Virus record (IMG/VR): IMGVR_UViG_2563366961_000004 | Location: 1-9,448 of that record | DNA: 9,448 bases | Direction: 5' to 3' (one strand) | From: a virus | Taxonomy: Duplodnaviria > Heunggongvirae > Uroviricota > Caudoviricetes | Shown here: one piece after another, positions 1 through 9,448 of the stretch | Layout of the letters: each line of letters opens with the position of its first letter | Numbering within the stretch: position 1 is the stretch's first letter | Translations under genes and position numbers: made by a program | Notes under the pieces: generated by a model | Told to the model about the DNA's origin: nothing | Database searches by the model: none | What the model saw: the letters and a program-made list of their open reading frames with translations, nothing else

Positions 1-295
1 AAGAACTGTTCACACTGTTCACCTTTCTTTTTTCTCCTTTTATTTCATAGTGATAGGTGGTGAATAATGGGTGAAGGGTGAACATTCGATTCTTCACCTC
101 CGGCATTCTGCCGGTGTGACTTGTGCAGGGGATTAATTTCCCGTGCTGAAATCACACCGGAAGAAAAAAGTTTTTTTTGATTTGATTGTTCACACTGTTC
201 ACCTTTCGTTTTTCTCTTTTAATTTCAGTGTGATAACGGGTGAATATACGGTGAAGGGTGAACAGTGGATTGTTCACCTTCGGGGGATTCAGGGA
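1..295. repeat. crr: crr-like cis replication region: two ~105-bp direct repeats (about 2-104 and 183-287) separated by ~78 bp, each carrying TGTTCACC-type octamer iterons in both orientations
   Basis: Seen directly: copy 1 and copy 2 align along their length (AACTGTTCACACTGTTCACCTTTC...GGTGAAGGGTGAACA...TTCACC). Iterons TGTTCACA/TGTTCACC at 7-23 and 188-204; inverted GGTGAANN copies at 59-84 and 250-265. In P4, as I recall, crr is two ~120-bp direct repeats with alpha-binding TGTTCACC iterons. Sits just downstream of the alpha gene. Confidence 0.65.
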
Positions 296-296
296 T

Positions 297-321
297 AAAA
301 AAAGACCGGCAGATGCCGGTC
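297..321 (-). terminator. Rho-independent terminator downstream of the alpha gene
   Basis: Stem GACCGGC (304-310) / GCCGGTC (315-321), loop AGAT; on the - strand it is followed by a U7 run (A7 at 297-303 on +). Lies 16 nt past the alpha stop codon (338-340). Confidence 0.6.
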
Positions 322-337
322 AGATGAGTCATGATGG

Positions 338-2671
338 TCAGGTTGTTGCAGGGTCGTCACATTTTGGCAGCCAGTCGCCGTAGCTTTCCTCTTTCAGCGT
401 CAGGTTGGTCTGTATCCCCTGTTTGGTATGGCGCTTCTCGTAATTCAGTCCGTATTCCTTCAGCATCACCGGCAGCCCCAGCCCGAACATTTTCAGACTG
501 AGTACATTCCGGTAGCCGTTTGCCTCCATGTAGGCCAGATAGGCGTGATAGAGGTATTTACGGTAATTACGCGGGATGATACTGGCGTTCCCCATATACA
601 TGCCGCTGGTCTGCGGCAGGGTTTCCAGATAGCCGATAAAATCAAACGTCGGGTCGGCATCCCGTTTGATGTTCAGTGCCTCGTCTGAGTTCTGCTGGGA
701 CTGAAGCAGTGACCGGGCGAGCATCGGGTCGCTGAACTTCTGCATCAGGTGACGCACGATGACCGCCAGCTCGCGGGTGATTTTGTCCTTAAGCTGCGGG
801 TCGCGCTCCTGCGGGGCTATCTGTTCCGGGAAGTGAATAATCACCCGCCGGCGTGACACGCCGCCGCTGCGGTCGGTGAAGCGCATCGGGTTATTGTTCA
901 CGGCCAGAATCACCGCCGGGATGTGCGTGGAGTACGCATCCCGGTATTTCGGGTCAACGGACACTGCATCGCCGCCGGTGATGGCCTTGAGTCCGGCTCC
1001 GTCGCCGCTCCATTTTTCCTGGTCCGGCAGGCGTATCAGTGAGAAGCCAGTTAACGCGGCACGTTCACGCGGGGATTCCAGCGTCTCGATGGTGGCCGAC
1101 GTGGCGTTATCCTCACCGGCCAGCAGGGTGGCGATTTCGGCCATGATACTTTTGCCGCTGCCGCCGGGACCGGTCACCTCCAGAAAGAGCTGCCAGTCGT
1201 AGCGGTTTGCCAGCACCATAAACAGTGCGGCCAGAATCACGTCGCGTTTTTCCGCACGGCCACCGGCGGCACGGTCAAGCCAGCGCCAGAACGCGGGGGC
1301 GTGGGTCTCCAGCGTTTCACCGTCCACCGGCGGGGTGAAATCCACATCGCACAGGGTGCGCATCCAGTGTGACGGACTGTGCGGATGGAACGTGCCGTTC
1401 TGCGTGTCGAGCACGCCGTTACGAAAGCCAATCAGGCGGCGGGAGGGGGCTTCCTGCTGCGGAATAATCAGTTTCAGGGTGTCCACCACGGAGGCCACCT
1501 TCCCGGAGGAGAACGGCGCGCGCAGACGCTGAAACAGCCCGGCCACATCCCGGGCAAAGTCCTGTGGCGGCAGCACCTTCCAGACACCATTTTCATAGCG
1601 GGACAGAAGCTGGCCGTTGGCATCGACCGCGAGCGCCTCGCCGTAATGCTCATAGATACGCATGGCCTTTTCGCTGGTACTCATGGCGGAAAACTCTGCT
1701 TCGCTCATGGTGTCGAACGGGCTTTCAGCCGGTGGCCGGATGGCATCGTAAATGGCCTTACGGGTGGCCTCCCCGCCGTACTGCGTGAAGGCATCATTCC
1801 AGTCACCGAAGACCGGCGGCAGGGCAACAACGCCCTCACACGCATCTGCGGCTGCGGCGGCTTTTTTCTGGCCGTCACCGCTGAGGTCACGGTCTGCGGC
1901 AAGGACAATCTGACAGGCCGGATGCTTCTGCCGGGCAAGGCTGGCCAGAGAAAGGAGGTTCACGGAAGAAAGCGCCACCATCACCGTTTCACCGGTCAGG
2001 TGATGCACGGTAAGTGCGGTCGCGTATCCCTCCGCTATCCACAGACGTTTTCCGGCCTGATTCTGTCCTTCAAGGGTGTGACAGGTGCCCCTGACCTGTC
2101 CGCCTTTCAGGGTGCGCTTACGGCCGTCAGCACTGATTAACTGAAGGTTAACCAGTTCGCCGCTGTCGTCATACAGTGGCACCACAAGGTCACCGGCGCG
2201 CCAGCTCACGCCACCGGCTCTGTGTGTGCCGGTCAGCATCCGGCATTCCCGGCCGGGAAAGCCCTTGCGGGTCAGGTAGGCGTTACCGGTTCCGGGACGG
2301 GTTTTTGCCATCAGGGTTTGTGCCAGTGCGGCGGCGTTCTTCCGGGCAGCGTCTGTTTCAGCAACGGCGGCGGCCGTCACTGCCGGGTCAGCCGGGGGCA
2401 GGCTGCCGGTCACGGCAGCCACCTTTGCGGCCGCGTCGGACGGAGAGACACCAAACACCTTTCCAACCAGTTTCAGGCCGTCACCGGCACCACACTGATT
2501 GCAGTACCAGGTGCCGCGCCCCTCCCTGTCATCAAAACGGAAGCGGTCACTCCCGCCACAGACCGGACAGGGCTGATGACGGTTTTTCAGCACCTGAATC
2601 CCCAGCGCCGGGAGAATACGCGGCCAGTGGCCGAGCGCATGGCTGACGGTGGCGGTTACGTTCATTTTCAT
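338..2671 (-). CDS. alpha: P4 alpha-type replication protein (primase-helicase with C-terminal origin-binding region), 777 aa
   Basis: 777-aa ORF, the length I recall for P4 alpha. N-terminal zinc ribbon CPVCGGSDRFRFDD...WYCNQCG; primase motif WIAEGYATA; Walker A VTGPGGSGKS in the helicase part. SD GGAGAA 7 nt upstream of ATG at 2671. Iteron clusters that alpha-type proteins bind occur at 1-295 and 5011-5114. Confidence 0.93.
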   Translation of the reverse strand: MKMNVTATVSHALGHWPRILPALGIQVLKNRHQPCPVCGGSDRFRFDDREGRGTWYCNQCGAGDGLKLVGKVFGVSPSDAAAKVAAVTGSLPPADPAVTAAAVAETDAARKNAAALAQTLMAKTRPGTGNAYLTRKGFPGRECRMLTGTHRAGGVSWRAGDLVVPLYDDSGELVNLQLISADGRKRTLKGGQVRGTCHTLEGQNQAGKRLWIAEGYATALTVHHLTGETVMVALSSVNLLSLASLARQKHPACQIVLAADRDLSGDGQKKAAAAADACEGVVALPPVFGDWNDAFTQYGGEATRKAIYDAIRPPAESPFDTMSEAEFSAMSTSEKAMRIYEHYGEALAVDANGQLLSRYENGVWKVLPPQDFARDVAGLFQRLRAPFSSGKVASVVDTLKLIIPQQEAPSRRLIGFRNGVLDTQNGTFHPHSPSHWMRTLCDVDFTPPVDGETLETHAPAFWRWLDRAAGGRAEKRDVILAALFMVLANRYDWQLFLEVTGPGGSGKSIMAEIATLLAGEDNATSATIETLESPRERAALTGFSLIRLPDQEKWSGDGAGLKAITGGDAVSVDPKYRDAYSTHIPAVILAVNNNPMRFTDRSGGVSRRRVIIHFPEQIAPQERDPQLKDKITRELAVIVRHLMQKFSDPMLARSLLQSQQNSDEALNIKRDADPTFDFIGYLETLPQTSGMYMGNASIIPRNYRKYLYHAYLAYMEANGYRNVLSLKMFGLGLPVMLKEYGLNYEKRHTKQGIQTNLTLKEESYGDWLPKCDDPATT

Positions 2672-2685
2672 GGTGTTGTTCTCCT

Positions 2686-3006
2686 TCAGTGCAGTACCGG
2701 CGCTTTTATGTGACGGGCACAGAGTTCATCCATCACAACCAGCCCGAGAAAGGACAGCGACGGCGCGGCCTTCAGGGGGCCGGATTCCATTAAATCTTCC
2801 AGCAGGGCACAGGCTATCTGACGCCCTTTTTCCTCACCGTGCTGGCGCAGATAAAAGCCTTCCAGCTCAGCGGCGATGGCCGCCTCCAGTGACTCAAGGG
2901 TGAGATGCGGGTAGCGGTGCTGACGTTCGCACACGGTCAGCCAGGCACAGGCGACAGCGCGACGGTAAAGGGCAGCACGTAAGACGGGCGGTAAGGGTGT
3001 TTTCAT
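2686..3006 (-). CDS. Hypothetical protein, 106 aa, immediately upstream of alpha in the left operon
   Basis: ORF with strong SD (GGGAGGAAA) upstream of ATG at 3006; ends 14 nt before the alpha start. Protein-like composition. Function not recognisable from sequence. Confidence 0.7.
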
Positions 3007-3141
3007 TTGTTTTCCTCCCTGTGACAGATGACTGCATTCCGTGCCGGTTGCATTAACTGATAAGGCATATCTGCGTCTCCTGAAGACGTGCGTATCCCTG
3101 CGCGAATACGCACATTTAATTTTTCGGGTGTCGTTTTTTAA

Positions 3142-3597
3142 TTACAGATAATTGCGGTAACTGTTATCCGGGGTGATTTCCGGGTCAGGCTCCGTGCGGG
3201 GAATTTCCCGCCATTCCCGCGCCACCGGTGCCGCCCGGCTGACCGGAACAGGGGCCTGCGGGTAAATATCCAGATATTTCTCCCGCCATTTCTGTAATTC
3301 CGGGTCTCCGGCCATTTCTTTCAGTACCGCATGCCGGTTTACGGGGCTGCGTTTAAACAGGTCAGGACGGTCACAGGTAAATTCCCGCAGAAAACGCCCC
3401 AGCGGGATGTCTGTGGTGCGCCCGTCAGCGAGGATACGCACAAGGATACTGAATTTACGGCGGTACGGGTTCCAGACAATGTCCGGGCAGCGGTACGGCA
3501 TTTCCCACGGAATACCGTCTTCCAGAATGCCGACCACGGCCACATCGGGAAAACCGGCAGAACGGTAAATCTCACCGGGCTGGGGAAAATCAAACAT
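3142..3597 (-). CDS. Hypothetical protein, 151 aa, left operon (size matches my recollection of a P4 'orf151')
   Basis: ORF whose ATG (3597-3595) overlaps the stop of the upstream 95-aa ORF in the sequence ATGTTTGA, consistent with translational coupling. No catalytic motif recognised. Confidence 0.75.
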   Translation of the reverse strand: MFDFPQPGEIYRSAGFPDVAVVGILEDGIPWEMPYRCPDIVWNPYRRKFSILVRILADGRTTDIPLGRFLREFTCDRPDLFKRSPVNRHAVLKEMAGDPELQKWREKYLDIYPQAPVPVSRAAPVAREWREIPRTEPDPEITPDNSYRNYL

Positions 3598-3877
3598 GCG
3601 TCTTGTCTCCCCGGTCTTTCTGCTGGGCGAGAAAATCGCGGCACAGGCCTTTGGCTTTCAGCTCATTCAGCACAAAATCAATATCTTCATTCAGGTAGCT
3701 GAAAATATGCGGAATGTAGAGCTGATGCAGGCCGGAGAGTTCACGGTGAATCAAATCACCCCCAACAAACTGGGATACGGCGCTGGCGCGGTTGAGCTTA
3801 TGGTAAGCCTCAATGCTGAGGTGTTCACGGGCGTCATGACGCGCTGAGACGGTCTGAGGGGCTTTTTTATTACGCAC
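3590..3877 (-). CDS. Small protein, 95 aa if started at GTG 3877; positional candidate for a P4 epsilon-like helper-derepression protein
   Basis: SD GGAGGT 5 nt upstream of GTG at 3877-3875; this start overlaps the stop of the upstream 65-aa ORF (GTGCGTAA). The longer 147-aa reading from ATG 4033 adds a Cys/Pro/Ser-rich, non-protein-like N-terminus and is disfavoured. Assignment as epsilon rests on position and size only. Confidence 0.55.
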
Positions 3878-4067
3878 GGGACACCTCCACCACCGGCAGA
3901 CGGGCAGCAAGGGAGAGCACATAGTCACGGACAAGGGAACGGCGGGCACTGCGTTCATCACCGGCGACGGTGCGAAGCATGCAGATACGGGGATGACGGT
4001 CTGCGCGACGGACAGCCGCAAACACAAAGACAAATTCAGGGTGTGAAGGGGTAAGGGTTGTAGCCAT
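3870..4067 (-). CDS. Small hypothetical protein, 65 aa, first translated ORF after the immunity leader (a kil-like position in P4 terms)
   Basis: ATG at 4067-4065 preceded by GGAGG with 8-nt spacing; it is the C-terminal part of a longer artefactual 214-aa ORF. Stop overlaps the GTG start of the next ORF. Function unknown. Confidence 0.4.
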
Positions 4068-4097
4068 GATGGCAGCCTCCGTTAGATAGCAGGTTAC

Positions 4098-4385
4098 GCT
4101 ATCGCCGGAGTTTCCACGCTCGATGGCGATAGCCCAGACGGGGGTGGAAATACCGGCTCTAACGGATACCGGCCAGCCCGGAGGCTGCCCCGCCTGAGCT
4201 ACCATTGACTCTGCGGCATAATGAGCGGACGCGGGCAGGATGCACGGAGTTCCATCTGCTCGACTGACCACACACCACACCATAATCTGGCGCTCTGTGG
4301 CGTTGATTGCGACACAAAAAAAGACGCATGGCGCGTCATATGTCGCCGTTAGATTGCTCGGGTTTCCACGCCCGGCTGCCGATTT
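4098..4385 (-). promoter_or_regulatory. P4-type immunity/leader region: two GCGUGGAAAC boxes (RNA sense) flanking one complementary UUUCCAC box; candidate CI-like small RNA and seqA/seqB/seqC-like architecture
   Basis: Seen directly: GTTTCCACGC on + at 4110-4119 and 4362-4371; complement GTGGAAA at 4144-4150; box 4110-4119 lies in the loop of a 9-bp hairpin (GCTATCGCC 4098-4106 / GGCGATAGC 4125-4133). In P4, immunity is an RNA (CI) whose seqB pairs with seqA and seqC on the nascent leader. Exact RNA ends cannot be set from sequence. Confidence 0.4.
4316..4337 (-). terminator. Intrinsic terminator inside the leftward leader, between the promoter-proximal box and the complementary box
   Basis: Stem GACGC (4323-4327) / GCGTC (4333-4337), loop ATGGC; followed on the - strand by U7 (A7 at 4316-4322 on +). 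Confidence 0.5.
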
Positions 4386-4400
4386 TGCGACAGCGGAAAA

Positions 4401-4430
4401 ACTATATCCGCAAATGCCGGAAAAAGGCAA
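4401..4430 (-). promoter_or_regulatory. Candidate sigma70 promoter for the leftward leader/operon (PLE-like)
   Basis: On the - strand: TTGCCT (-35; + coordinates 4430-4425), 18-bp spacer, TATAGT (-10; 4406-4401). Located between the vis stop (4466) and the first GCGUGGAAAC box. Hexamer matching only. Confidence 0.35.
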
Positions 4431-4465
4431 GCCAGAAAAAGGGACTTTTTGCAGAACAGGCATCA

Positions 4466-4732
4466 TCATGCGTCGTACCCCCGTTTGCGTCCGGCAATGC
4501 GGCCGGCCATCCATGCGGTGACTTCAGAGTGCAGCCAGGCCACATTTTTACCGCCAAGACTCACCTGCGGCGGAAATTCCCCCTTACGGATGAGTTCGTA
4601 GATGGTCGAGCGTGACAGGCCGCACAGGTGCATCACTTCCGGAAGACGTAAAAAACGCTCCTGTGTGATGTCCGGCAGCGGCATCAGTGGCGTCACAGGG
4701 GCGGGAGACGGGGAAGAAAAAACAGCTTGCAT
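4466..4732 (-). CDS. vis: AlpA/Vis-family small DNA-binding regulator/excisionase, 88 aa
   Basis: Core [50 protein letters not shown] is the characteristic AlpA-family helix-turn-helix region. SD GAGGT 6 nt upstream of ATG 4732. An internal start at Met17 (72 aa) cannot be excluded. Confidence 0.8.
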
Positions 4733-4834
4733 CGGGCTACCTCGTTAATGTCCATACAGCACCGGATAAGTCCGTCCGGCTTCGGGTAGCGCTTTATTTT
4801 GTGAATATTTTCGGCAGACGCAACAGGGGGGATT

Positions 4835-4852
4835 TGTTCCGGCAGCCTTACA
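4835..4852. promoter_or_regulatory. TGT-N12-ACA dyad, candidate Delta/Ogr activator site of a leftward late promoter (PLL-like) upstream of vis
   Basis: TGTTCCGGCAGCCTTACA fits the TGT-N12-ACA dyad that P2/P4 late promoters carry near -55. Lies about 100 bp upstream of the vis start on the - strand. Confidence 0.35.
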
Positions 4853-5010
4853 ATGGCTGTGCATTTTTTGTACATCAGCGCCAGATAGCTTTAAAACGCT
4901 CTGGAAGGAGCTGGAAAAAATTATAGTGAAATACAAATTGTTTTTTCTTATTTATTTCAGTGAATTAATAAAAATAAAAAGTAATAAACAGCACAAAAAG
5001 CCCATCAACG

Positions 5011-5114
5011 GGTGAACAGTGGTGAACAGACGGTGAACAGTCATTACTGCGATTGTTCACCCTTTAACTTACTGTATTACTTATCTTTTTTCTTATTGTG
5101 AACAGAGGTGAACA
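5011..5114. repeat. ori: ori-like iteron cluster: six TGTTCACC-type octamers next to an AT-rich block (about 4921-4990)
   Basis: GGTGAACA at 5011-5018, 5021-5028, 5032-5039; inverted TGTTCACC at 5054-5061; TGTGAACA at 5097-5104; GGTGAACA at 5107-5114. Same octamer as in the 1-295 repeats. Located between the divergent vis and sid genes. P4 ori is recalled to contain alpha-binding iterons. Confidence 0.65.
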
Positions 5115-5195
5115 GTAAAATATAAAAAAAAACAAACAGTAAGCCGGTTTTTCCTGCGACCTTTTCCTGGCTTGCCGGTCTGAGGATGAGTCTCC

Positions 5196-5213
5196 TGTGT
5201 CAGGGCTGGCACA
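5196..5213 (+). promoter_or_regulatory. TGT-N12-ACA dyad, candidate Delta/Ogr-dependent late promoter for sid-delta-psu (Psid-like)
   Basis: TGTGTCAGGGCTGGCACA at 5196-5213; centre about 80 bp upstream of the sid ATG (5286), compatible with an activator site near -55 and a short leader. Confidence 0.4.
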
Positions 5214-5285
5214 TCTGCAATGCGTCGTGTTGTTGTCCGGTGTACGTCACAATTTTCTTAACCTGAAGTGACGAGGAACCGGAAA

Positions 5286-6020
5286 ATGTCTGACAACACC
5301 ATCCCTGAATATCTGCAACCCGCGCTGGCACAACTGGAAAAGGCCAGAGCCGCCCATCTTGAGAACGCCCGCCTGATGGATGAGACCGTCACGGCCATTG
5401 AACGGGCAGAGCAGGAAAAAAATGCGCTGGCGCAGGCCGACGGAAACGACGCTGACGACTGGCGCACGGCCTTTCGTGCAGCCGGTGGTGTCCTGAGCGA
5501 TGAGCTGAAACAGCGCCACATTGAGCGCGTGGCACGCCGGGAGCTGGTACAGGAATATGACAATCTGGCCGTGGTGCTGAATTTTGAACGCGAACGCCTG
5601 AAAGGGGCGTGTGACAGCACGGCCACCGCCTACCGGAAGGCACATCATCACCTTCTGAGTCTGTATGCAGAGCATGAGCTGGAACACGCCCTGAATGAAA
5701 CCTGTGAGGCGCTTGTCCGGGCAATGCATCTGAGCATCCTGGTACAGGAAAATCCGCTCGCCAACACCACCGGCCATCAGGGCTACATCGCACCGGAAAA
5801 GGCTGTCATGCAGCAGGTGAAATCATCGCTGGAACAGAAAATAAAACAGATGCAAATCAGCCTCAGCGGTGAGCCGGTTCTCCGGCTGACCGGACTGTCA
5901 GCGGCAACACTCCCGCACATGGATTATGAGGTGGCAGGCACACCGGCACAGCGCAAGGTGTGGCAGGACAAAATAGACCAGCAGGGAGCAGAGCTTAAGG
6001 CCAGAGGACTGCTGTCATGA
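5286..6020 (+). CDS. sid: Sid, capsid size-determination (external scaffold) protein, 244 aa
   Basis: Protein begins MSDNTIPEYLQPALAQLEKARAAHLENARL, which I recognise as P4 Sid. ATG 5286 has SD GAGGAA 7 nt upstream; the ORF-track start at 5268 is an in-frame GTG 18 nt upstream and less likely. Stop overlaps the delta start (ATGA at 6017-6020). Confidence 0.9.
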   Translation: MSDNTIPEYLQPALAQLEKARAAHLENARLMDETVTAIERAEQEKNALAQADGNDADDWRTAFRAAGGVLSDELKQRHIERVARRELVQEYDNLAVVLNFERERLKGACDSTATAYRKAHHHLLSLYAEHELEHALNETCEALVRAMHLSILVQENPLANTTGHQGYIAPEKAVMQQVKSSLEQKIKQMQISLSGEPVLRLTGLSAATLPHMDYEVAGTPAQRKVWQDKIDQQGAELKARGLLS

Positions 6021-6517
6021 TTTACTGCCCGTCGTGTGGACATGTTGCTCACACCCGTCGCGCACATTTCATGGACGATGGCACCAAGATAATGATTGCA
6101 CAGTGCCGGAATATTTATTGCTCTGCGACATTTGAAGCGAGTGAAAGCTTTTTCTCTGACTGTAAAGATTCAGGAATGGAATACATTTCAGGCAAACAGA
6201 GATACCGCGATTCACTGACTTCTGCCTCCGGCAGTATGAAACGCCCGAAAAGAATGCTTGTTACCGGATATTGTTGTCGGAGATGTAAAGGCCTTGCACT
6301 GTCAAGAACATCGCGGCGTCTGTCTCAGGAAGTCACCGAACGTTTTTATGTGTGCACGGAGCCGGGCTGTGGTCTGGTGTTTAAAACGCTTCAGACCATC
6401 AACCGCTTCATTGTCCGCCCGGTCACGCCGGACGAACTGGCAGAACGCCTGCATGAAAAACAGGAACTGCCGCCAGTACGGTTAAAAACACAATCATATT
6501 CGCTGCGTCTGGAATGA
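6017..6517 (+). CDS. delta: Delta, late-gene transcriptional activator (tandem Ogr-like zinc-finger domains), 166 aa
   Basis: Two Cys4 modules (CPSCGH...CRNIYC and CCRRCK...CTEPGC); 166 aa as I recall for P4 Delta; translationally coupled to sid. Confidence 0.9.
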   Translation: MIYCPSCGHVAHTRRAHFMDDGTKIMIAQCRNIYCSATFEASESFFSDCKDSGMEYISGKQRYRDSLTSASGSMKRPKRMLVTGYCCRRCKGLALSRTSRRLSQEVTERFYVCTEPGCGLVFKTLQTINRFIVRPVTPDELAERLHEKQELPPVRLKTQSYSLRLE

Positions 6518-6590
6518 GGGCTGCCGGTTAACCCCGGCCGTCGCCGCACACCGTATTTTTATTCTTCAGCATGATGAGAAAGAGATAACG

Positions 6591-7163
6591 ATGGAAAGCA
6601 CAGCCTTACAGCAGGCCTTTGACACCTGTCAGAATAACAAAGCAGCATGGCTGCAACGCAAAAATGAGCTGGCTGCGGCCGAACAGGAATATCTGCGGCT
6701 TCTGTCAGGAGAAGGCAGAAACGTCAGTCGCCTGGACGAATTACGCAATATTATCGAAGTCAGAAAATGGCAGGTGAATCAGGCCGCCGGTCGTTATATT
6801 CGTTCGCATGAAGCCGTTCAGCACATCAGCATCCGCGACCGGCTGAATGATTTTATGCTGCAGCACGGCACAGCACTGGCGGCCGCACTGGCACCGGAGC
6901 TGATGGGCTACAGTGAGCTGACGGCCATTGCCCGAAACTGTGCCATACAGCGTGCCACAGATGCCCTGCGTGAAGCCCTCCTGTCCTGGCTTGCGAAGGG
7001 TGAAAAAATTAATTATTCCGCACAGGATAGCGACATTTTAACGACCATCGGATTCAGGCCTGACGCGGCTTCGGTGGATGACAGCCGTGAAAAATTCACC
7101 CCTGCGCAGAACATGATTTTTTCGCGTAAAAGTGCGCAACTGGTATCACATCAGTCTGTGTAA
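6591..7163 (+). CDS. psu: Psu, polarity suppression / capsid decoration protein, 190 aa
   Basis: 190-aa ORF beginning MESTALQQAFDT, in the sid-delta-psu order typical of P4; followed by a terminator hairpin and then cos. Confidence 0.9.
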   Translation: MESTALQQAFDTCQNNKAAWLQRKNELAAAEQEYLRLLSGEGRNVSRLDELRNIIEVRKWQVNQAAGRYIRSHEAVQHISIRDRLNDFMLQHGTALAAALAPELMGYSELTAIARNCAIQRATDALREALLSWLAKGEKINYSAQDSDILTTIGFRPDAASVDDSREKFTPAQNMIFSRKSAQLVSHQSV

Positions 7164-7199
7164 AACTCCCCGAAAATCCGCCCGTTTTTACTGAAAAAA

Positions 7200-7232
7200 G
7201 CCATGCATCGATAAGGTGCATGGCTTTGCATG
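7200..7232. terminator. Bidirectional intrinsic terminator between the convergent psu (+) and cargo NTPase (-) genes
   Basis: Stem GCCATGCA (7200-7207) / TGCATGGC (7217-7224), loop TCGATAAGG; flanked by AAAAAA on the 5' side (U6 for the - strand) and TTTGCATGCGTTTT on the 3' side. Confidence 0.55.
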
Positions 7233-7327
7233 CGTTTTCCTGCCTCATTTTCTGTAAACCGTGCCATTCCCGGCGCGGTCTGAGCGTGTCAGTACAACTG
7301 CATTAAAACCGCCCCGCAAAGCGGGCG

Positions 7328-7346
7328 GGCGAGGCGGGGAAAGCAC
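7328..7346. other. cos: cos site core: 19-nt P2/P4 cohesive-end sequence
   Basis: Exact GGCGAGGCGGGGAAAGCAC at 7328-7346, the cohesive-end sequence I recall for P2 and P4. Preceded by a GC-rich dyad (CCCGCAAAGCGGG, about 7313-7325). In P4 cos lies directly after psu, as here. Confidence 0.8.
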
Positions 7347-7380
7347 TGCGCGCAGTATAAGAATTAAATAGGTATGGATT

Positions 7381-9075
7381 TTAAAATCCATCAAGTAGCT
7401 GATTGATACCATTGCTCTCATCACAATTTATTTGCTCTAACTCAAATAAAGCACTGTCGTACTTTATTTGGGGAGTGTTTTCAAATGACAATAAAGATTC
7501 GATTAGTCTTATTTCTTTATCTTTATTTATGTCTTTAAGTGAGTCTAAAGTTAAATTGAATTTAACTTCGGGTTGTTTTCCTACTTCCATCATGATATTT
7601 GACTCCAACTCTGGATCAGTATTGAAGAATCGATGTGTCTTATGGAAATAACTAGGTTTTCTTGATTTTAAAATACTTAGTATATCCGACTTGATAGTGC
7701 TTTCCCGTGCTATCACAAGCCAATGGTTGGCAACCCCTGTGATGGTGGTAATGATGTGGGAGCCATTTTCACTTAGTTCATTAAAGGCTCTTAAGTCACC
7801 CTTGAAAAAATCATTTAGCAACTCATTTTCTTTATCTTTATCAAAAAGGTAAATTATTGAATTGCCGGCTAATGATATTTCAGCCTTGGTTTTTATAGTA
7901 TCGCAATTAAATTGCGCGGTCTCATTTTTTAATTCTTCGTAAGATGATTTTAAGTCTAAAAGCAAGCATTTTATTATACTTGATCTGAAAGATGAGTAAT
8001 CAATATCAGCACAAAGTGAAAATAAATTTCTGTGACGAATGGATTCAGGGCTGTAATATAGCTTTGTTAATATTTCTTTTTGGCGTTCTTTTGTGTCACG
8101 ACAGATAAACATAGCTGCAAAATATTCCATTAATGATTTGTGTGACCAACGAATAATAGCGCCTTCTTTGACAAATAATGGAACGGTTTCAATTAAGTCC
8201 TGAATAAAAAGAGATGGTGAAGTTGATATTCCGGGAATTTTTGAAATGATATTTTGCAATGTTATTTGCAGATCGTCTTTCGTAAACTCAATTTTACCTC
8301 CGTCTTTCAAACACCAAAAACCTAATCTCCTTAAGACCTGATGGAAGTCAGTGGAGTCTAGCTTAGAAAATTTTTCTCTAACATAACCAAGTTCTTTAGT
8401 TAAATCATGAGACTCATACAAAGCGTCAAATACTTGGCTATAAAATAACTCTCTTTTTCTTGGTATTATCGGTTTGAATTTATATGCACAAAATAATAAT
8501 GAAACATAAAGAGGTGTGGATAAAAATTCATTTAGATTATGACCATTCTCCAGTCGTAATCCTTTAATTAATTGAGATGAAATAGGGCCACGTCCATCAT
8601 ATCGACGTAATAGATCATACGCTTGATTCGTTTCTAATGGGTTGATTTTAAATCTTGAGAAACCATGTAGTTCTGATAAGAAATTATCATGACGAGAAGT
8701 TATAATTATTTTGCTTTCTGAGAAATTATTAGCAAAGGTACTTAGTAAATTTACGATCTTGGATTTGAGTTGTTGTGGGATTTCATCTATGCCATCGAAA
8801 AGATAAATAAAAGGGATTTTTTTGAGGCAGTTGTCTGAAATGTCTTCTCCTAAACCAAGTTGATGTTTCACCTGTAGCGCAAAATCATAATCTTTAGCAC
8901 GTCGTAATTCAATGTATATTGGAATGTATTCCTTATTAGCGATGCAATCTAAAGCAATTCTTTTCATTAGGGTGGACTTACCCATTCCTGCTGAGTCAGT
9001 GATTAATATATGATTGAAATTATCTAATAAATCTGCATTGTCTTTTATTAGGCATGTGTATGGTTTTTTTTTCAT
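7381..9075 (-). CDS. NACHT-type STAND NTPase (564 aa as drawn) with a ~230-aa C-terminal region of unknown fold; candidate anti-phage defence protein
   Basis: Walker A ITDSAGMGKST (aa 24-34); Walker B of the NACHT hhhhDGxDE type (IYLFDGIDEI); sensor-1-like IIITSR. AT-rich, unlike the P4-like core. The ATG sits directly on an A9 run and has no SD, and the upstream ORF joins it with a 1-nt shift, so this may be the downstream part of one larger gene. Confidence 0.8.
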   Translation of the reverse strand: MKKKPYTCLIKDNADLLDNFNHILITDSAGMGKSTLMKRIALDCIANKEYIPIYIELRRAKDYDFALQVKHQLGLGEDISDNCLKKIPFIYLFDGIDEIPQQLKSKIVNLLSTFANNFSESKIIITSRHDNFLSELHGFSRFKINPLETNQAYDLLRRYDGRGPISSQLIKGLRLENGHNLNEFLSTPLYVSLLFCAYKFKPIIPRKRELFYSQVFDALYESHDLTKELGYVREKFSKLDSTDFHQVLRRLGFWCLKDGGKIEFTKDDLQITLQNIISKIPGISTSPSLFIQDLIETVPLFVKEGAIIRWSHKSLMEYFAAMFICRDTKERQKEILTKLYYSPESIRHRNLFSLCADIDYSSFRSSIIKCLLLDLKSSYEELKNETAQFNCDTIKTKAEISLAGNSIIYLFDKDKENELLNDFFKGDLRAFNELSENGSHIITTITGVANHWLVIARESTIKSDILSILKSRKPSYFHKTHRFFNTDPELESNIMMEVGKQPEVKFNLTLDSLKDINKDKEIRLIESLLSFENTPQIKYDSALFELEQINCDESNGINQLLDGF

Positions 9076-9340
9076 TATCGTAATAAATGCTCATTGGCTC
9101 ATAAATATCTAGAAGCTCTACTGGAGTATTTTGAAAAGCTAAGGTATTCACAAGGGAGCATTGCCCTTTCACATTTGATAGGAAACGTTCAAGATTTTTA
9201 TTCAAGAAGCGTGCTGCATGTACATCTATTAAATAATTACGAACACTACTTTCTATGATAGGTAATATTTTATTCTTAATAACCTCCTTTGCCCATGGAA
9301 GGGATGCAGAGACTAATACATCAAGAGATACTGGTTGCAT
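9020..9340 (-). CDS. 106-aa ORF encoding a probable N-terminal module (~92 aa before the A9 tract) of the NACHT protein; separate frame, overlapping the NTPase ORF by 56 nt
   Basis: ATG at 9340 with a weak AAGG SD. Reads through the A9 tract as ...DNEKKT... and stops 18 codons later. Deleting one A gives an in-frame junction ...YYDNEKK-PYTCLIKDNADLL... with the NTPase. No known effector motif recognised. Confidence 0.5.
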   Translation of the reverse strand: MQPVSLDVLVSASLPWAKEVIKNKILPIIESSVRNYLIDVHAARFLNKNLERFLSNVKGQCSLVNTLAFQNTPVELLDIYEPMSIYYDNEKKTIHMPNKRQCRFIR

Positions 9341-9448
9341 GAATTATACCTTATTTTGGTAATGACTCCAACTTATTGATAGTGTTTTATGTTCAGATAA
9401 TGCCCGATGACTTTGTCATGCAGCTCCACCGATTTTGAGAACGACAGC

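Follow-up and report, generated by a model that had tools for sequence, protein, structure and literature searches.

We found that positions 7381–8085 (minus strand) of a 9,448-nucleotide stretch of viral DNA (IMG/VR record IMGVR_UViG_2563366961_000004, positions 1 to 9,448; hereafter the window) encode the C-terminal part of bNACHT22, a previously described bacterial NACHT protein. An original prediction, made from the letters of the window, had proposed this region as a candidate non-canonical sensor domain behind a NACHT NTPase. It makes up the C-terminal third of this short, NLR-related clade-14 protein, which is satellite cargo, and we consider it likely, by analogy with the characterized protein bNACHT11, that its SNaCT domain acts as the sensor in the way described for bNACHT11. 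The name SNaCT was given to the C-terminus of clade-14 proteins, which is variable and free of repeats and was proposed, with its variability as the signature, to be a sensor or a target of phage antagonism (Kibby et al., 2022; bioRxiv 10.1101/2022.07.19.500537). What stands of the original prediction is a distinct, hypervariable domain for which sensing would follow from the bNACHT11 analogy; the domain is not an unrecognized one, as the class already has a name and a Pfam entry. The protein, its clade, the class of its repeat-free C-terminal domain, and the hotspot in which its gene lies are all published, the domain family is in Pfam, and the system is thus already known.

Identification of the protein required repair of the gene, which is split as sequenced. 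The flagged region corresponds to residues 331–564 and the stop codon of a 564-residue open reading frame (ORF 9075..7381), and a 106-residue ORF (9340..9020) overlaps its start in a different frame, the two meeting in a run of nine adenines (A9, 9064–9072). The 564-residue ORF exists only because an extra A in this run shifts the frame by +1; the real gene is longer, with its true N-terminus at 9340 and full-length residue numbers equal to the ORF numbers plus 88 (full-length numbers are used below unless ORF residues are specified). The closest genomes have eight adenines (A8) and a single intact coding sequence (CDS) of 1,959 nt annotated “NACHT domain-containing protein” (WP_001183326.1), and A8 with an intact 652-residue CDS was present in 25 of the 25 complete Escherichia coli genomes that carry the gene, from 5,426 complete genomes scanned. 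The extra A is the sole difference within the CDS when the window is aligned to NZ_OZ547117. Because the window differs from its nearest genome by three +1 homopolymer differences (9072, 7189, and 5132) but only 4 substitutions over 5.3 kb, the frameshift is most likely a sequencing error and not the mark of a real pseudogene. We considered phase variation or programmed frameshifting at the A9 run and do not favor either, since A9 occurs only in the window and is accompanied there by two other +1 homopolymer differences. The repaired product of 652 residues is identical to WP_001183326.1, which is bNACHT22 (clade 14 in Tables S1 and S2 of Kibby et al.), taken from E. coli ECOR36 and cloned together with int; bNACHT24 (WP_087889289.1, from ECOR35) is near-identical to it (Kibby et al.). 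The window protein is placed in clade 14 through this identity, WP_001183326.1 being listed under that clade in Table S1. The window copy differs from published bNACHT22 in having A9 instead of A8, which splits its reading frame.

The full-length AlphaFold model, for which a 72-sequence family alignment served as input (predicted local distance difference test score (pLDDT) 84.6, predicted template modeling score (pTM) 0.81), divides the repaired protein into N-terminal helices, a nucleotide-binding domain (NBD), helical domain 1 (HD1), a winged helix (WHD), a four-helix subdomain resembling helical domain 2 (HD2), and an alpha/beta domain (Table 1). The N-terminal extension has conserved residues at P15, A17, P27, C61, A68, and N71 in the family alignment, and N-termini in the family begin MQPVS, MLETITLE, or MITIENA. 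The NACHT match in Pfam (34.9 bits, cut-off 26.7) covers ORF residues 25–159, with DSAGMGKST (K121) as Walker A and FIYLFDGIDE as Walker B, and seven residues are invariant in the 72 homologues (G118, G120, K121, and T123 in the Walker A stretch G118–T123, and D182, D185, and E186). A Foldseek search of the PDB with the predicted model returned NLRC4 (4kxf) as the best match (E 2.2e-13) and NLRP3, NOD2, and NAIP5 after it, so that on the predicted model the protein has the NBD–HD1–WHD–HD2 fold of a NACHT STAND NTPase; the authors of the bNACHT11 study report the same kind of top structural matches (Robbins et al., bioRxiv 10.1101/2024.12.17.629029). Sequence and family-profile searches of PDB chains (a set without the bNACHT11 entry 9ORF) gave only a marginal match to the NLRC4 P-loop (E 0.05). 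Residues 401–473 continue this NACHT module, because they have a weak NLRC4_HD2 match and low column entropy (1.46, with invariant KSLMEYF and LCxDID motifs) and because Kibby et al. annotated “NACHT 100..477” for bNACHT22, and no SNaCT. Separately, we observed a common Klebsiella pneumoniae allele of 586 residues (P0016–P0028), found on dozens of contigs, that equals the 652-residue form (P0008) minus the in-frame residues 204–269 (66 residues); because the missing residues come from the NBD and HD1, we take this allele to be probably inactive.

The distinct C-terminal domain comprises residues 474–652 (window 7384–7920), about 180 residues, and its boundary lies near residue 474, not at residue 419. 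The region of about 230 residues that the original prediction had placed after the NACHT module is therefore composite: a separate domain occupies 474–652, and the first ~55 of its 234 residues are the HD2-like helices of the NACHT module. The structure prediction and fold search that had been suggested as a check gave a clear answer for residues 474–652, with the C-terminal 252 residues modeled alone (pLDDT 88.5, pTM 0.85) reproducing the secondary structure of the full model as a distinct alpha/beta domain. The proposal that the C-terminus lacks repeats was borne out. Pfam found no TPR, LRR, WD40, or other repeat family in the C-terminal region, and in the AlphaFold models it is a globular alpha/beta fold and no solenoid. 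We rejected an internal-repeat reading of the C-terminus because the best self-alignment, with a score of 42, fell within the range of 40 shuffles (32.6 ± 7.3, maximum 56). An effector or enzyme reading was likewise rejected, the domain being hypervariable and having neither conserved polar residues of catalytic type outside the tail nor an enzyme fold match. The alpha/beta domain had no structural neighbor in the PDB (again the set without 9ORF), and the BFVD viral models gave none at E ≤ 0.001.

Sequence profiles assign the domain to a family. The Pfam model SNaCT5 (PF22711, cut-off 27) matched with 31.4 bits in the whole ORF and 35.0 bits in the C-terminal 252 residues, covering ORF residues 358–550 and profile positions 1–193 of 196; this model begins in the HD2-like helices (full-length residue 446) and so straddles the structural boundary at ~474. 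When a profile of the core and tail was run against 1.84 billion representatives, no more than 60 clusters matched. Full-length matches of the domain profile were all 614–744 residues long with the domain at the C-terminus, the short ones look like fragments, and among ten matches scanned with Pfam, nine had NACHT and eight SNaCT5, each having at least one of the two. The full-length homologues are spread over many genera and their catalytic residues are invariant. As described for clade 14, the C-terminal extension of the window protein is short and has neither repeat nor supersecondary-structure elements.

The domain is also more variable than the NACHT module that adjoins it, which is how Kibby et al. 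defined SNaCT. Mean column entropy was 2.70 in residues 474–630 versus 1.39 in the NACHT module (Mann–Whitney p = 8e-35). Identity to the E. coli protein dropped from 91% in the NACHT module to 66% in the alpha/beta core for homologue P0002, from 75% to 34% for P0008, and from 52% to 17% for P0032, while the C-terminal tail kept 45–82% identity across the same comparisons. Residues L634, I637, D640, S642, N643, G644, and L648 of the tail are near-invariant (consensus DxSNGIxxLLxGF), and the least variable residues of the core (I553, I556, L557, R560, P562, and F565) lie in the helix directly after the beta-hairpin 529–546. High core entropy together with a steep loss of identity in the core is, at the level of the alignments, an arms-race signature.

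In the family alignments the core (474–630) further divides by sequence into at least three subtypes: an enterobacterial subtype (IIYLFDKDKEN...HWLVIARE), a second subtype (ITNKRIK...LYIVSDDP..INNS), and a Proteus subtype (DKEIWASISFF...NNFIGFRDYITHITYP). The IL.ILk.K.PE.F helix and the DxSNGIxxLLxGF tail are common to all three. Because the subtypes differ in the core but have the same helix and tail, their sequences suggest a cassette-like replacement of the sensing surface.

The genomic setting identifies the gene as satellite cargo. The window is a P4-like satellite with alpha primase, an AlpA-type regulator, sid, delta, and psu, and the NACHT gene sits between psu and the integrase gene, that is, in the psu-int defense hotspot of P4 defined by Rousset et al. 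2022 (PMC9122126). The GC content of the NACHT gene (window 7251–9250) is about 31–34% versus 52–63% in the satellite core, a difference that fits a recently acquired hotspot cargo. In most of the other genomes int ends 3 nt ahead of the NACHT ATG; in the window the end of an IS1 element lies at this junction (Table 1), and it is in this IS1 end that the bNACHT24 fragment cloned from ECOR35 starts.

bNACHT11 (WP_114260439.1, from Klebsiella) is the clade-14 protein in which SNaCT sensing was shown, by binding assays, mutagenesis, and cryo-EM (Robbins et al.). Beta-augmentation and a hydrophobic patch mediate the binding of the T2 proteins gp6, gp9, and gp57 by its SNaCT domain, and once a ligand is bound, a heptamer forms in an ATP-dependent manner; the last 7 residues of bNACHT11 dock in the neighboring SNaCT domain and are needed for oligomerization, and its N-terminal MDPIT extension is the effector, required for the (plasmolytic) cell death (all bioRxiv 10.1101/2024.12.17.629029). 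For comparison we used a bNACHT11 sequence rebuilt from a Klebsiella plasmid, which fits the published residues D2, P3, K115, R214, S518, I519, F522, I549, and I553. The gene spans the record origin of this 4,234-bp ColRNAI plasmid (NZ_CP127841.1) and is absent from its gene table, which lists three other CDSs; a scan of genome contigs for bNACHT11 found one truncated cyanobacterial contig only.

The two clade-14 proteins are similar in length (639 residues in bNACHT11 versus 652 in bNACHT22) and have their parts in the same order, with a short N-terminal extension, a NACHT module with HD2, a non-repeat alpha/beta domain of ~160–180 residues, and a hydrophobic tail. They are 27% identical over residues 38–393, spanning N-terminus and NACHT (E = 2e-28), and their tails are alike (...NQLLDGF in bNACHT22 versus ...DDALKEILGF in bNACHT11). 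In the model, the beta-hairpin 529–546 of bNACHT22 and the conserved helix behind it are reminiscent of the bNACHT11 interface, though as a resemblance only. They differ in the N-terminal motif (MDPIT in bNACHT11 versus MQPVS(LD) in bNACHT22, alike in character without being one motif), in the carrier (a 4.2-kb ColE1-type plasmid versus a P4 satellite), and in that ligands and a clear T2/T4/T6 phenotype are known for bNACHT11 but not for bNACHT22. The N-terminal consensus of the bNACHT22 family lies closer to MLETITLE or MITIENA.

A mechanism like that of bNACHT11 is the best-supported model, and for bNACHT22 we infer it by analogy, including the sensor role of the SNaCT5 type, ligand binding, oligomerization, tail docking, and cell death. 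In this model the SNaCT domain would hold the NTPase off in a resting monomer. During infection, one or a few phage proteins would bind the variable face of the domain, which would allow ATP-dependent oligomerization of the NACHT modules into a ring, and the conserved tail would dock onto the adjacent protomer and stabilize that ring. The clustered N-terminal extensions of ~80 residues (MQPVS...) would then kill or arrest the cell before the phage cycle ends, as in abortive infection.

Several observations weigh against this model. Kibby et al. have no entry under “Phage Defense” for bNACHT22 or bNACHT24, neither of which gave confident protection in their ten-phage panel, and a drop in T3 plaque-forming units with bNACHT22 came without smaller plaques and was judged unreliable. 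The gene is also frameshifted as sequenced in the window. When the C-terminal regions of the bNACHT22 and bNACHT11 families were compared with hhalign, the alpha/beta parts aligned at 0.3% probability, and only a shared first helix (KSLMEYF/KSIQEYH) was aligned, at 9% probability. Because of this null result, and because bNACHT11, bNACHT01, and bNACHT23 match no Pfam SNaCT model, a fold and binding mode common to the bNACHT22 and bNACHT11 sensors is unproven. We accordingly make no claim that SNaCT5 is homologous to the bNACHT11 sensor domain (466–628), as the detected similarity ends at the shared helix. A distinct SNaCT5 fold is conceivable because the domain has neither profile similarity to the bNACHT11 SNaCT nor a PDB neighbor. 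We tentatively regard it as possible, though well short of probable, that SNaCT5, as a sensor fold, differs in structure from the bNACHT11 SNaCT and has triggers outside the classical panel of T phages, lambda, and single-stranded RNA phages, candidates being proteins of P2-like helpers or of other temperate phages in competition with the P4 satellite that carries the gene. If true, this would explain the negative published screen. An activator of bNACHT22 and bNACHT24 would show whether the bNACHT11 binding mode, with beta-augmentation and a hydrophobic patch, applies to SNaCT domains in general or only to bNACHT11. The SNaCT5 type has no detectable sequence relation to the sole SNaCT with known ligands.

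Other readings of the C-terminus make different use of the same observations. The SNaCT5 domain might monitor a host factor or process in the manner of a guard instead of binding a phage protein, as bNACHT25 does by way of DnaJ: that protein detects the MS2 coat protein only through this host chaperone and does not bind it directly, and a negative panel of classical coliphages is compatible with a trigger other than a common phage protein. The extreme diversification of the core among close orthologues, however, is easier to reconcile with a phage partner that changes fast than with a host partner that is conserved, and bNACHT25 is listed apart from the named clade-14 proteins, of which the one studied so far, bNACHT11, senses directly; we consider guard-type sensing rather unlikely. 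The absence of confident defense in the published screen could alternatively mean that the protein plays no part in defense against phages in E. coli, as decaying cargo or as part of satellite biology, with a C-terminus that serves mainly for autoinhibition or oligomerization. The conserved tail does point to a structural or oligomerization role, and damaged alleles exist (the window frameshift and the 66-residue in-frame deletion common in Klebsiella), but the gene is intact in every complete E. coli genome found to carry it, full-length homologues with invariant catalytic residues occur in many genera, and the gene lies in a hotspot dedicated to defense cargo. Hypervariability is moreover restricted to one domain and therefore argues for selection rather than decay. 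On these grounds we judge this explanation improbable.

The outcome that the original prediction had named as refuting it, a flagged region that lacks a separate domain and only extends the NTPase core in the usual winged-helix or helical form, describes residues 401–473 well, since these are helical, conserved, and weakly matched by NLRC4_HD2. It is contradicted for residues 474–652, which form the distinct alpha/beta domain, and for the region as a whole we give it almost no weight. We conclude that the bNACHT11-like sensor model accounts best for the C-terminus of bNACHT22.

Comparison with other STAND systems places the protein more precisely. The NACHT module has the NBD–HD1–WHD–HD2 fold of the eukaryotic NLRs (NLRC4, NAIP5, NLRP3, and NOD2), but those proteins sense through an LRR solenoid, while bNACHT22 has a compact alpha/beta domain and no CARD, PYD, or BIR. 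With Avs/AVAST it would, by analogy, have in common the tripartite logic of an effector, a STAND NTPase, and a C-terminal sensor of phage proteins; the Avs sensors, in contrast, are large TPR-like arrays, and their NTPase belongs to another STAND clade. PADLOC made no defense-family assignment for the window protein, and there was no match to an Avs family beyond the P-loop (PADLOC Avs2, E 0.0039, 12.9 bits, residues 17–85 only).

Table 1. Features of the bNACHT22 gene, its product, and its surroundings in the window.
Feature	Window positions	Strand	Residues	Basis
Complete bNACHT22 gene, 652 codons and stop after frameshift repair	7381..9340	minus	1–652	Product identical to WP_001183326.1
A9 homopolymer that splits the bNACHT22 gene by a +1 frameshift	9064..9072	minus		Intact copies have A8
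N-terminal helical extension, begins MQPVSLD, presumed effector/adaptor	9095..9340	minus	1–82	Model helices 6–62
NACHT NTPase core (NBD, HD1, and winged helix)	8146..9094	minus	83–398	Pfam NACHT, Walker motifs, Foldseek
HD2-like four-helix subdomain, part of the NACHT module	7921..8139	minus	401–473	Model helices 401–415, 417–429, 433–446, 448–473
Hypervariable alpha/beta core of the SNaCT5 domain, ~157 residues	7450..7920	minus	474–630	Strands 494–500, 529–536, 539–546, 591–596 packed with helices
Conserved C-terminal helix and tail, ~22 residues, ending ...DESNGINQLLDGF	7384..7449	minus	631–652	Family conservation
N-terminal helices			6–62	Full-length AlphaFold model
NBD			83–232	Full-length AlphaFold model
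HD1			237–309	Full-length AlphaFold model
Winged helix			329–398	Full-length AlphaFold model
Four-helix HD2-like subdomain			401–473	Full-length AlphaFold model
Alpha/beta domain, strands 494–500, 529–536, 539–546, 591–596			479–650	Full-length AlphaFold model
GC hairpin with a T run after it, resembling a terminator, downstream of the bNACHT22 gene	7309..7328	minus		Sequence
psu, conserved left border of the psu-int hotspot	6591..7163	plus		Pfam Psu, 1.9e-87
End of IS1 element, 17 bp upstream of the NACHT start codon, between the gene and the P4 integrase	9358..9448	not assigned		IS1A annotation at the same junction in NZ_OZ547117

Two further observations concern the satellite itself. The product of sid (5268–6020, plus strand) had no Pfam match and carries the PHROGs label “polarity suppression Psu-like”, and the RefSeq names of this protein vary (“capsid size-determining scaffold Sid” and “glycoprotein 3”), making its public annotation inconsistent. 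Rfam, above its gathering score, placed a C4 antisense RNA (76 bits) at 4122–4209 and an isrK Hfq-binding RNA (72 bits) at 4317–4394, both on the minus strand; together they mark the P4-type immunity region, which overlaps a listed ORF at 3870–4514.

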